DNA from: Escherichia coli
GTDB taxonomy: Bacteria > Pseudomonadota > Gammaproteobacteria > Enterobacterales > Enterobacteriaceae
Strand: one strand, 5' to 3'
DNA length: 64,000 nucleotides
NCBI RefSeq assembly: GCF_003334335.1
Contig: NZ_QOWQ01000002.1
Part shown: positions 53,404 to 56,240 of the stretch, piece after piece
Position numbering within the stretch: the first letter of the stretch is position 1
Layout: each line of letters starts with the position of its first letter
Program-made: the position numbers and the translations under genes
Notes under the pieces: generated by a model
What the model saw: only the letters and a program-made list of their open reading frames with translations
The model's database searches: none
Told to the model about the DNA's origin: nothing

Positions 53404-54375
53404 TTATTTACTGTTGTATAACAAAGTTATAACACCATCCACTACCTGAGCCATTTTCTGATAATTCAATCTGTCTGCGGTATCACCGGGCAAGTGGTAT
53501 TGTTTATTACGATAAAAAGCGGTGTCAGTAATCATTATGGCGGGAATATCGTGTTGCCAATAATTCAGGTGGTCAGAGAAATCAATACCGGGAATAAACC
53601 CTGGGGTATTCATAGAATAAACAGATAAATCCTGAGATGACAACAATGCCGCTTTTACCTGACGAACGGCGTTGATATCCTGTATTCTGCCGACCACGGC
53701 AATAAAGTCTCCCCGATCGGGATAAAGCCAGGACATTGCCGGGTAAGGGTAATTCTGGCTTCCAGGCGCAGAGTCGTAATAGCCAATCATCTCCAGTGCT
53801 ATCATTAATTTCACTGGACGCTCAAGCGAAGCTGCATGCACCGCGCTCCCCATTTCATCGCTACGAAAGAAGGGCGGTTCTTCCGACGCATAGGCGACCA
53901 GCTGCACGCCTGTTTTCGGTACTTGCTGATGTAACAAACGTGCCAGTTCGAGTAATCCTGCCACACCGCTGGCGTTATCATCCGCGCCCGGCGTATAGGT
54001 CAATTGATCGTTTTCATAACTGCTGGCAGAGTCATAATGCGCACCAATAATAATCAGCAGTCCATCGGCAGGACCATAATCAGCAACAATGTTTTTGTAG
54101 GGGCCACCCGTAATGGGGACGTCCTGCGAGGTAACTCTGGCACCGCTACTGACAAAGACCTCTTTTATATATTCTGCGGACCTATTCAGATTATCAATAT
54201 TGTCGGCACTACGTGGATGCACAGTTTGTGTAAGATAACGAACTGTTTTTTCTAATTGCTCAGGACTTGCGTGTCGGGGCGTTGACGGTAATGCATTGAC
54301 CCAGGGTTGGTAAAAAATAATCATAGGGAGTAAAAACACAAATAATATAATAAAAGCAAAGATTATTTTTTTCAT
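53404..54375 (-). CDS. yfbL: Secreted M28-family zinc aminopeptidase YfbL
   Basis: 323 aa from the ATG at 54375 (the track start is a TTG two codons upstream); signal peptide; M28 motifs GAHYDS, DDNASG and EEPPFF. Confidence 0.8.
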   Translation of the reverse strand: MKKIIFAFIILFVFLLPMIIFYQPWVNALPSTPRHASPEQLEKTVRYLTQTVHPRSADNIDNLNRSAEYIKEVFVSSGARVTSQDVPITGGPYKNIVADYGPADGLLIIIGAHYDSASSYENDQLTYTPGADDNASGVAGLLELARLLHQQVPKTGVQLVAYASEEPPFFRSDEMGSAVHAASLERPVKLMIALEMIGYYDSAPGSQNYPYPAMSWLYPDRGDFIAVVGRIQDINAVRQVKAALLSSQDLSVYSMNTPGFIPGIDFSDHLNYWQHDIPAIMITDTAFYRNKQYHLPGDTADRLNYQKMAQVVDGVITLLYNSK

Positions 54376-54512
54376 ATGCAAATTATTAATGGGTTGCGTT
54401 GTTGAATCATTATTTGCTATGGGTTTCGATATTGTATTTTATTAAGATTAGCAGGATTATACAAAGAGTATATTTTATGTCTGGTGCCTGAGTTTATTTA
54501 AAAGGATTTTAT

Positions 54513-56240
54513 ATGCGAAATAAAAATATAATCATGTTGCTTATGAGTAGTTTGATTTTGTCAGGATGTGGGCCGCAACCTGAGAATAAGGAAAGTCAGC
54601 AACAACAACCCAGTACTCCCACAGAGCAGCAAGTGCTTGCCGCGCAGCAAGCTGCAATAAAAGAGGCTGAGCAAAGCGCCGCCGCCGCGAAAGCCTTGGC
54701 CCAGCAAGAAGTGCAACAATATTCAGACAAACAGGCTTTACAGGGGCGATTGCAGGAAGCGCCAACATTTGCAAGAGCGGCTAAAGCAAAAGCTACACAT
54801 ATCGCAAATCCAGGAACCGCTCGCTACCAGCAGTTCGATGATAATCCGGTTAAGCAGGTAGCGCAAAATCCGTTGGCGACGTTTAGTCTTGACGTTGACA
54901 CTGGCAGTTATGCGAATGTAAGGCGTTTCCTCAATCAAGGGCTGTTACCTCCGCCAGACGCTGTGCGGGTGGAGGAGATAGTCAATTATTTCCCGTCTGA
55001 TTGGGATATCAAAGACAAACAATCTATTCCGGCCTCTAAGCCAATACCTTTCGCTATGCGCTACGAATTGGCACCTGCACCATGGAATGAACAGCGAACA
55101 TTGCTGAAAGTTGATATCCTGGCGAAAGATCGCAAAAGTGAAGAGTTACCAGCTTCTAATCTGGTCTTTCTTATCGACACTTCTGGTTCAATGATTTCTG
55201 ATGAACGTTTGCCACTTATCCAGTCTTCGTTGAAATTATTGGTCAAAGAACTTCGTGAGCAGGATAACATTGCCATCGTGACCTACGCTGGCGACTCCCG
55301 TATTGCATTGCCTTCTATCTCCGGGAGTCATAAGGCGGAAATTAATGCCGCAATTGATTCGCTGGATGCCGAAGGCAGTACCAATGGCGGTGCCGGGCTG
55401 GAACTGGCTTATCAGCAGGCGACGAAGGGGTTTATTAAGGGCGGCATCAATCGCATTTTATTAGCCACTGACGGTGACTTTAACGTTGGCATTGACGATC
55501 CAAAATCGATTGAATCAATGGTCAAAAAACAGCGGGAGTCTGGTGTTACTCTGTCGACGTTTGGCGTGGGGAATAGCAATTACAACGAGGCAATGATGGT
55601 GCGAATTGCCGATGTTGGTAACGGCAACTACAGCTACATTGATACCCTCTCTGAAGCGCAGAAAGTATTGAATAGTGAAATGCGGCAGATGTTGATTACC
55701 GTAGCAAAAGATGTCAAAGCGCAAATTGAGTTTAACCCCGCGTGGGTAACGGAATACCGTCAGATTGGTTATGAAAAGCGCCAACTTCGGGTGGAACATT
55801 TTAATAACGACAACGTTGATGCAGGGGATATAGGCGCAGGCAAACATATAACGTTGTTATTCGAATTAACGCTGAACGGGCAAAAAGCATCAATTGATAA
55901 GTTACGCTATGCCCCGGATAACAAATTAGCGAAATCGGACAAAACGAAAGAACTGGCCTGGTTAAAAATTCGCTGGAAATACCCGCAGGGAAAAGAAAGT
56001 CAGTTAGTTGAATTCCCGCTGGGGCCAACAATAAACGCGCCCTCTGAAGATATGCGTTTTCGCGCAGCAGTAGCTGCATATGGGCAAAAGTTACGCGGTT
56101 CTGAATACCTGAACAATACCTCCTGGCAGCAGATCAAACAGTGGGCTCAGCAGGCAAAAGGGGAAGATCCACAGGGTTACAGGGCGGAATTTATTCGCCT
56201 GATTGAACTGGCGGATGGTGTGACTGACATCAGTCAGTGA
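54513..56240 (+). CDS. yfbK: von Willebrand factor A-domain lipoprotein YfbK
   Basis: 575-aa ORF; lipoprotein signal with lipobox LSGC; Gln/Ala-rich low-complexity linker; vWA MIDAS motif DTSGSM. Confidence 0.8.
   Translation: MRNKNIIMLLMSSLILSGCGPQPENKESQQQQPSTPTEQQVLAAQQAAIKEAEQSAAAAKALAQQEVQQYSDKQALQGRLQEAPTFARAAKAKATHIANPGTARYQQFDDNPVKQVAQNPLATFSLDVDTGSYANVRRFLNQGLLPPPDAVRVEEIVNYFPSDWDIKDKQSIPASKPIPFAMRYELAPAPWNEQRTLLKVDILAKDRKSEELPASNLVFLIDTSGSMISDERLPLIQSSLKLLVKELREQDNIAIVTYAGDSRIALPSISGSHKAEINAAIDSLDAEGSTNGGAGLELAYQQATKGFIKGGINRILLATDGDFNVGIDDPKSIESMVKKQRESGVTLSTFGVGNSNYNEAMMVRIADVGNGNYSYIDTLSEAQKVLNSEMRQMLITVAKDVKAQIEFNPAWVTEYRQIGYEKRQLRVEHFNNDNVDAGDIGAGKHITLLFELTLNGQKASIDKLRYAPDNKLAKSDKTKELAWLKIRWKYPQGKESQLVEFPLGPTINAPSEDMRFRAAVAAYGQKLRGSEYLNNTSWQQIKQWAQQAKGEDPQGYRAEFIRLIELADGVTDISQ

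Follow-up and report, generated by a model that had tools for sequence, protein, structure and literature searches.

Described systems related to YfbK and YfbL

The closest described relatives of YfbK are DUF3520/von Willebrand proteins associated with ECF289, where they are regarded as an anti-sigma-type partner (Casas-Pastor et al. 2021, PMC7826278). The ECF289-associated proteins have the same vWF_A, VWA and YfbK_C core as E. coli YfbK, to which they are 40–53% identical over residues ~100–570, and they share its invariant MIDAS residues; the C-terminal family of the core, PF12034, is named after E. coli YfbK. The difference lies in what precedes the core. E. coli YfbK has a lipobox and a Gln/Ala tether, whereas ECF289-type proteins have a cytoplasmic anti-sigma segment and a transmembrane helix. 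When 40 long YfbK homologues were scanned against Pfam, the search returned two weak zf-HC2 matches, and PATR repeats in 12 proteins. Because a classical anti-sigma domain was not matched beyond the two weak zf-HC2 hits, it is from the literature and an alignment consensus that an anti-sigma role is assigned to the N-terminal extensions.

Other vWA proteins resemble YfbK in part. The VWA domain taken alone has its best sequence and fold matches in BatA and BatB of the Bacteroides aerotolerance operon (PDB 3IBS and 4JDU; E 1e-7, target-normalised TM 0.72). Unlike YfbK, Bat proteins have neither a vWF_A nor a YfbK_C domain, and they are encoded with MoxR ATPase and DUF58 genes. Neither a MoxR AAA+ ATPase nor a DUF58 gene is found among the neighbours of yfbK, and a Bat/MoxR-type vWA system was therefore rejected. 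For the whole YfbK core, the top Foldseek matches (E 1e-17 to 1e-13) are ArnB, an archaeal Sec23/24-like vWA protein, inter-alpha-inhibitor heavy chain 1 (ITIH1), and Gram-positive pilus-tip adhesins. In these proteins a vWA domain is packed on a beta-sandwich and protein binding is MIDAS-dependent, and the YfbK core is built alike; at 12–15% identity and a query-normalised TM of only 0.3–0.37, this is a likeness of architecture and not family membership.

For YfbL, the reference is the M28 leucyl aminopeptidase of Vibrio (Aeromonas) proteolyticus (1AMP), whose H97, D117, E151, E152, and D179 correspond to H113, D133, E165, E166, and E195 of YfbL. A C-terminal S-D-H motif is also common to both, as H269 in YfbL. 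The match covers only ~100 residues (E 2e-9). YfbL differs from 1AMP in its fourth ligand, which is Glu throughout the subfamily instead of Asp, and in having a putative N-terminal hydrophobic anchor and no propeptide. The aminopeptidases Iap of E. coli and LapA of Legionella have the M28 fold and an envelope location in common with YfbL. Orthology to either was rejected on profile scores (NF007568, 20.7 bits against a cut-off of 298; NF045908, 45.8 against 600). A glutaminyl cyclase was rejected because all five ligands are present in YfbL, and cyclases are short of two of them.

Both genes have long been annotated in E. coli K-12 (yfbL is b2271).

Organization of the yfbL–yfbK locus

The window, that is, the whole stretch of DNA analysed, is 64 kb of E. 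coli chromosome. The 2837 bases of the yfbL–yfbK region match, at 100% identity, E. coli chromosomes that carry annotations for both genes, with yfbL annotated as an M28 family metallopeptidase. The surrounding genes are yfbM, yfbN, yfbO, yfbP, elaD, rbn, and nuoN. The features of the region are as follows.

53404..54375, minus strand: yfbL coding sequence, 323 aa from ATG at 54375, stop codon 53404-53406 (ORF list)
53425..54093, minus strand: Peptidase_M28 domain of YfbL, residues 95-317 (Pfam PF04389, E 8.1e-25)
54310..54366, minus strand: very hydrophobic N-terminal segment of YfbL, residues 4-22, a signal anchor or signal peptide
54376..54512, no strand: divergent intergenic spacer, 137 bp, 27.7% GC
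54456..54483, minus strand: sigma-70-like promoter match toward yfbL, CAGACA-16-TATAAT, 10/12 (consensus match alone)
54458..54463, plus strand: TATACA, a -10-like hexamer ~50 nt 5' of the yfbK start (alignment)
54513..56240, plus strand: yfbK coding sequence, 575 aa (ORF list, annotated records, Pfam)
54558..54569, plus strand: lipobox L-S-G-C of YfbK, residues 16-19, Cys19 followed by Gly
54570..54812, plus strand: Gln/Ala-rich linker of YfbK, residues 20-100 (composition, pLDDT, predicted secondary structure)
54816..55109, plus strand: vWF_A N-terminal domain, PF12450, residues 102-199 (Pfam)
55158..55661, plus strand: VWA domain of YfbK, residues 216-383 (PF00092, E 4e-22)
55176-55190, plus strand: MIDAS motif D222-T-S224-G-S226, completed by T290 and D320
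55689..56216, plus strand: YfbK_C domain, PF12034 (formerly DUF3520), residues 393-568 (Pfam)
56260..56295, no strand: perfect 16-bp-stem hairpin between convergent yfbK and elaD (MFE -31.3 kcal/mol, z = -7.0)

Both reading frames lie where the first-pass annotation had placed a divergent pair, and the AT-rich spacer of 137 bp that it described has exactly this length, with a GC content far below the 51.4% of the whole window. The ORF list takes yfbL further, to a TTG at 54381. On the yfbK side, the stretch from TATACA to the AAAAGGA ribosome-binding site is kept in an alignment of six enteric loci. These include Salmonella, in which the region upstream of yfbK is kept though yfbL is absent. 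The TATACA hexamer is a candidate promoter element of yfbK. No Rfam families were found in or near the spacer. The hairpin downstream of yfbK is likely a bidirectional terminator.

YfbL, an M28 peptidase predicted to face the periplasm

YfbL combines an M28 profile match with five metal ligands (H113, D133, E166, E195, and H269) and the catalytic E165, as aligned to 1AMP, the fourth ligand being Glu for Asp. All six residues are invariant in 20 family members, which bears out the earlier description of intact metal-ligand motifs. The name given with it, M28 Zn-aminopeptidase, holds for the family, by Pfam and the ligands, but aminopeptidase specificity is a family-level guess. Identity within the subfamily is ~50% between the E. 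coli member and those of Lysobacter and Rhizobiales.

The 19 residues of the hydrophobic segment average 3.0 on the Kyte-Doolittle hydropathy scale and are directly followed by Q23-P24, which is invariant across the family; no conserved Ala-x-Ala cleavage site follows the segment in the family alignment. Because of these features, an uncleaved signal anchor that leaves the catalytic domain in the periplasm would fit at least as well as a cleavable signal peptide, and calling YfbL secreted, as had been done on the strength of a signal peptide, goes further than its N-terminus warrants. Most likely, YfbL would be a di-zinc M28 exopeptidase that is held in the inner membrane via its N-terminal segment, or released. 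From the periplasm, its catalytic domain would remove residues at the N-terminal (or C-terminal) ends of envelope proteins or peptides.

YfbK, a predicted lipoprotein with an intact MIDAS

The N-terminus of YfbK (MRNKNIIMLLMSSLILSGC) is positively charged and continues into a hydrophobic core and a lipobox of the form [LVI][ASTVI][GAS]C ending at Cys19; at the same position, short YfbK homologues have an L-x-A-C consensus. A hydropathy scan found no hydrophobic windows in YfbK beyond the signal peptide. By the Lol rule, the sorting of lipoproteins is set by the residue at +2, the outer membrane being the default. Because this residue is Gly, YfbK is predicted to be sorted to the outer membrane. 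YfbK is also among the predicted lipoproteins of E. coli (PMC2850352).

The linker contains 19 Ala and 17 Gln in 81 residues. In the structure model of YfbK (pLDDT 83.8), it consists of a predicted long helix (38-76) flanked by low-confidence ends. Its length is polymorphic among E. coli (cluster lengths 575–615 aa), and no tandem repeats were found in the DNA that encodes it. The VWA profile is accompanied by a complete D-x-S-x-S...T...D set, and D222, S224, S226, T290, and D320 are invariant in 28 YfbK homologues. Thus, the lipobox, the Gln/Ala-rich linker, and the intact MIDAS (DTSGSM) reported by the first-pass annotation are all present. The model resembles, in Foldseek, binding proteins that join a vWA domain to a beta-sandwich, namely ArnB, ITIH1, pilus-tip adhesins, and BatB. 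YfbK may then hang from the membrane via its lipobox signal peptide and the tether, and bind a periplasmic ligand through the metal site.

Genomic partners of the two families

The E. coli YfbK query matched E. coli clusters only, and wider homologues were collected with 50%-identity representatives and Superficieibacter queries. YfbK loci were counted at the species level, as the best 80 of at least 600 matching stretches; all six-frame ORFs were searched for neighbours, and adjacency was scored on flanks of up to 10 kb each side. Two metagenome representatives (P0121 and P0122) lie on contigs too short for gene context.

At YfbK-family loci, the gene that recurs as a partner encodes an ECF sigma factor, not a peptidase. 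Among these best 80 of at least 600, an ECF sigma gene lies within 2 kb of the YfbK homologue at 50 loci; if only the loci with 3 kb or more on each side are counted, the figure is 37 of 52. By contrast, an HMM built from 34 of these neighbours, run at E<=1, found no ECF sigma factor across the 64-kb window, nor at five enteric loci. E. coli YfbK therefore has the vWF_A, VWA, and YfbK_C architecture of the ECF289-type module and lacks the adjacent sigma gene, the cytoplasmic anti-sigma segment, and the transmembrane helix. It would be an orphan, lipoprotein-anchored copy of an extracytoplasmic module that in most bacteria is encoded beside an ECF sigma factor, of which it is regarded as the anti-sigma or sensor partner (ECF289). 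The sigma factor partner has probably been lost in the enteric lineage.

A YfbL-family gene, sought with a YfbL HMM in the six-frame ORFs, lies near a YfbK homologue at only two of the best 80 of at least 600 loci, those of E. albertii and Superficieibacter, both Enterobacteriaceae. None was found within the flanks of the other 78, and phmmer at E<=10 agrees. Conversely, a vWA neighbour is missing from all four loci with a non-enteric YfbL orthologue (49–52% identical), namely those of Lysobacter, Hydrogenophaga, and Taklimakanibacter and that on a metagenome contig. In Salmonella, the same chromosomal site holds nuoN, a yfbM-like remnant, yfbK, a CheW/response-regulator gene, and rbn. Here tblastn found no yfbL even at E<1, and no Salmonella-named protein is among the best 120 relatives of YfbL. 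The consecutive locus tags of yfbK and nuoN in SL1344 agree with this arrangement (PMC8065163).

The back-to-back arrangement is thus confined to Escherichia and a few close relatives. It was proposed from the first reading that the two genes share a function, and independent distribution was named in advance as the result that would speak against it. Independent distribution is what these loci show, together with the E. coli genomes described below. A shared function is not supported, since adjacency is restricted to one group and each gene occurs alone elsewhere; nor is the pair conserved as a unit, its adjacency not being repeated across independent lineages. The compartments do not refute a link, since each protein plausibly faces the periplasm. 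We infer that yfbL and yfbK are probably two independently acting envelope genes, adjacent by lineage-specific ancestry in a variable, low-GC islet between nuoN and rbn. The back-to-back position would have arisen once, in an ancestor shared by Escherichia and a few related Enterobacteriaceae.

A functional pair that works in the periplasm and is specific to Escherichia and its close relatives is unlikely. In such a pair, the MIDAS of YfbK could capture a protein or peptide for YfbL, or YfbL could process YfbK. The predicted periplasmic exposure of both proteins is compatible with it, and the divergent order is kept in Escherichia, Superficieibacter, and another enteric lineage at 62–68% protein identity while all flanking genes have changed, which runs counter to independence. 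Nevertheless, Salmonella keeps yfbK alone, and the two families are not linked outside the clade, as judged from the best 80 of at least 600 YfbK loci and from the four YfbL loci.

Variation within E. coli

Presence of each gene, taken as coverage >=80%, was scored in 5426 complete E. coli genomes. yfbK is present in 2514, yfbL in 3293, and both in 2512. One common yfbK deletion junction occurs in 2514 of the 5426. Both alleles, yfbK+ and yfbK-deleted, are old and common, and presence and absence of yfbK and its neighbours stand at ~46:46.

Several of these counts also run counter to independence and favour the pair. Only two of the 2514 yfbK-bearing genomes are without yfbL, and yfbL is truncated in ~2100 of 2900 yfbK-deleted genomes. 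Where full-length yfbL survives in one yfbK-less strain, it has a changed N-terminus and a raised dN/dS (0.35, versus 0.14 between E. coli and E. albertii). Such co-loss would fit a dependence of YfbL on YfbK, but it traces to very few evolutionary events, as there is one common deletion allele, and ~780 complete genomes have full-length yfbL without yfbK. In strain SCU-105, for example, an intact annotated yfbL stands beside the yfbK deletion.

The nuoN–rbn islet has a GC content of 41.6%, and its contents vary: L085 carries Septu there, and other genomes carry elaD or a CheW/response-regulator gene. Such composition could suggest that a horizontally acquired islet is eroding in E. coli and that both genes are dispensable leftovers of it, with no important present function and an adjacency due to common arrival. 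In line with this, half of the E. coli genomes are without yfbK and ~39% without intact yfbL, the E. albertii type strain has an in-frame stop in yfbL, and in one strain yfbK carries an IS1 insertion. We consider simple erosion improbable. The catalytic and MIDAS residues are all intact and invariant, the E. coli–E. albertii dN/dS of yfbL is low, and two old and common yfbK alleles are not the picture of one-way decay. In addition, a preprint reports a complemented phage N4 phenotype for deletion of yfbL.

Phage N4 and other screens

That preprint describes a host-factor screen for phage N4 in which yfbL and yfbO were recovered and complemented. Its lists that include yfbL and yfbO do not include yfbK, which argues against a functional pair. 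yfbO is truncated or deleted in both yfbK-less strains examined. Because the N4 host factors yfbL and yfbO are genes truncated or deleted in many E. coli genomes, the islet could be a natural phage-susceptibility polymorphism. In that case, the yfbK-region dimorphism would be kept by selection from N4-like phages, and YfbK, as another envelope component, would belong to the same pathway; this is a decidedly speculative proposal, and we give it little probability. YfbK, YfbL, YfbM, YfbN, YfbO, and YfbP have no match to PADLOC defence families. Elsewhere, persister, conjugation, and MMS screens each contain one of yfbL and yfbK, in list only, and an LldR gSELEX peak inside yfbK is a non-target according to its authors.

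Implications

That yfbL and yfbK do not form a conserved unit takes away an attractive inference by association that lacked support. YfbK may instead be seen as the sigma-less lipoprotein form of a module that is partnered elsewhere with ECF sigma factors, and YfbL as a member of a strongly conserved proteobacterial M28 subfamily standing on its own. The locus itself is an old presence/absence dimorphism in E. coli that overlaps genes recently implicated in phage N4 infection.

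The yfbL-yfbK locus

The window is chromosomal E. coli DNA. The divergent genes yfbL and yfbK are both already known, and complete E. coli genomes that match the 2837 bases holding them at 100% identity label yfbL an M28 family metallopeptidase and yfbK a vWA domain-containing protein.

Features of the yfbL-yfbK locus (window coordinates)
53404-54375, minus strand: yfbL, 323 aa, ATG at 54375 (a mechanical ORF list starts it two codons earlier, at TTG)
54376-54512: spacer, exactly 137 bp from start codon to start codon, 27.7% GC versus 51.4% in the window
54513-56240, plus strand: yfbK, 575 aa
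56260-56295: hairpin with a perfect 16-bp stem where yfbK and elaD converge (-31.3 kcal/mol, z = -7), which probably terminates transcription in both directions

The ORFs, the spacer and the identical annotated genomes bear out the coordinates and description of the first-pass annotation, and the observation is confirmed with one correction, to the term 'secreted'. Rfam has a single match in the window, a nuoG RNA motif (RF01748, 50.3 bits) at 40020-40062, within the nuo operon.

The YfbK and YfbL proteins

The lipobox, Gln/Ala-rich linker and intact MIDAS ascribed to YfbK are all present. A lipobox with Cys19 lies in the N-terminal sequence MRNKNIIMLLMSSLILSGC, and Ala plus Gln make up 44% of residues 20-100. 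Pfam domains follow: vWF_A (residues 102-199), VWA (216-383) and YfbK_C (393-568). The MIDAS consists of D222-T-S224-G-S226 together with T290 and D320, and D222, S224, S226, T290 and D320 are invariant in an alignment of 28 diverse homologues. An AlphaFold model built from that alignment (mean pLDDT 83.8) predicts disordered stretches flanking a long helix (38-76), followed by a compact core. In structural comparison the modelled core best matches vWA-plus-beta-sandwich binding proteins, namely ArnB, inter-alpha-inhibitor heavy chain 1, pilus-tip adhesins and BatB. The E. coli protein clusters differ in the length of the linker (window 54570-54812), with YfbK measuring 575, 581, 584, 587, 591 or 615 aa; a search of this stretch for tandem repeats in the DNA found none. 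In strain CUPF12, IS1 is inserted within yfbK.

YfbL matches Peptidase_M28 (Pfam, E 8e-25). Its residues H113, D133, E165, E166 and E195 align with H97, D117, E151, E152 and D179 of 1AMP, the Vibrio aminopeptidase, and H269 lies within a C-terminal S-D-H motif. Since all six residues are invariant among 20 family members, the active site is intact, as first proposed; the fourth ligand is Glu throughout the YfbL subfamily, in contrast to the Asp of 1AMP. The signal peptide proposed along with it is not established. Residues 4-22 are strongly hydrophobic (Kyte-Doolittle mean 3.0 over 19 residues) and are followed in the family alignment by an invariant Gln-Pro, with no conserved Ala-x-Ala site after the segment. 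An uncleaved signal anchor would explain this N-terminus no less well than a signal peptide would; with either, the catalytic domain is expected on the periplasmic side.

Neighbours across species

It had been proposed that the two proteins share an envelope function. This interpretation is supported in part: the gene identities stand, but a shared function is not supported, as the two genes are distributed independently. A profile of the 28 homologues was run against species-representative genomes, and the best 80 of at least 600 stretches were taken as YfbK loci; they span Proteobacteria, Bacteroidota, Planctomycetota, Cyanobacteria and others. A YfbL-family HMM, searched against every six-frame ORF of these loci, matched only in E. 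albertii and Superficieibacter electus, leaving 78 of 80 without a YfbL-family gene in the flanks covered, up to 10 kb each side; phmmer at E<=10 agrees. Conversely, none of four close YfbL orthologues (49-52% identity, equal length; Lysobacter, Hydrogenophaga, Taklimakanibacter and one metagenome contig) has a vWA neighbour.

The more frequent neighbour of YfbK homologues is an ECF sigma factor gene: 50 of the 80 loci have one no more than 2 kb away, as do 37 of the 52 loci whose flanks both reach 3 kb or more. The published classification of ECF factors likewise gives group ECF289 an anti-sigma partner in which DUF3520 and a von Willebrand domain are fused (PMC7826278). Neither the 64-kb window nor any of five related enteric loci yielded an ECF sigma gene. 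Therefore, E. coli YfbK is a sigma-less version of this module, differing from the ECF289 form also in its lipoprotein anchor.

Within Enterobacteriaceae, Salmonella keeps yfbK at the rbn-nuoN site without yfbL. In its locus (L092), tblastn at E<1 finds no yfbL, the sole match being a diverged yfbM-like remnant (35% identity, 7383-7739) between nuoN and yfbK; a CheW/response-regulator fusion (9832-10833) occupies the elaD position. In SL1344 the yfbK and nuoN locus tags are consecutive (PMC8065163), and no Salmonella-named protein occurs among the 120 best YfbL relatives. Salmonella also shares the conserved stretch 5' of yfbK, which holds a -10-like TATA(C/T)AA and the ribosome-binding region; this suggests that yfbK has a promoter of its own. 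In the E. albertii type strain NBRC 107761, yfbK is intact but yfbL carries an in-frame stop (942-944 of its locus, L005), which marks a pseudogene or else a sequencing error.

Presence and absence within E. coli

Among 5426 complete E. coli genomes (gene counted at >=80% coverage), yfbK is present in 2514, yfbL in 3293 and both in 2512; therefore, about 780 genomes, for example SCU-105 with its intact annotated yfbL, have full-length yfbL without yfbK. Truncated yfbL occurs in about 2100. The yfbK deletion removes window 54645-56200, and its identical junction (7170-7310 of L001, a yfbK-less locus) recurs at 93-100% identity in 2514 of the 5426 genomes, the same number as retain the gene. The deletion is one old allele, and E. 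coli is anciently dimorphic for yfbK.

A functional link confined to this lineage would accommodate several patterns. Adjacency survives down to 62-68% protein identity, E. coli almost never has yfbK without yfbL, and yfbL decay tends to accompany yfbK loss. The full-length yfbL of the yfbK-less strain (L001 6001-6963) has an altered N-terminus (MTPLYFISLLL...) lacking the Lys-Lys start. Compared with the window allele it gives a dN/dS of 0.35, versus 0.14 between E. coli and E. albertii, which may reflect relaxed constraint. However, all these patterns go back to very few events and are thus weak evidence; such a link is unlikely. We conclude that yfbL and yfbK, both known but uncharacterised, are envelope genes with a lineage-specific adjacency.

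The nuoN-rbn islet and phage N4

The interval 50188-57709 from nuoN to rbn, with yfbP, yfbO, yfbN, yfbM, yfbL, yfbK and the deubiquitinase gene elaD, has 41.6% GC versus 51.4% in the window, and its content differs among E. coli strains and enteric genera. E. albertii, Superficieibacter and an enteric metagenome scaffold (L085) hold the divergent pair at the same rbn-nuoN site, amid differing genes. In L085, a Septu anti-phage system (8978-10900; PtuA E 4e-168, PtuB E 2e-69) replaces yfbM, yfbN, yfbO and yfbP of E. coli between yfbL and nuoN. The yfbL-nuoN interval has the character of a small hotspot, for defence genes or for variable content.

In the literature, YfbK figures among predicted E. 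coli lipoproteins (PMC2850352) and among detergent-resistant Q/N-rich proteins, and has been compared structurally with vWA force transducers; the remaining mentions of either gene are single entries in screen lists. A 2025 preprint reports that deletion mutants of yfbO (51178-51654) and yfbL (53404-54375) are resistant to phage N4 and were complemented; yfbK is absent from the N4 hit tables covered. Deletions or truncations of yfbO and of yfbL occur naturally in many E. coli genomes. The sole lead of some interest is the overlap of the variable nuoN-rbn islet with reported phage N4 host factors.
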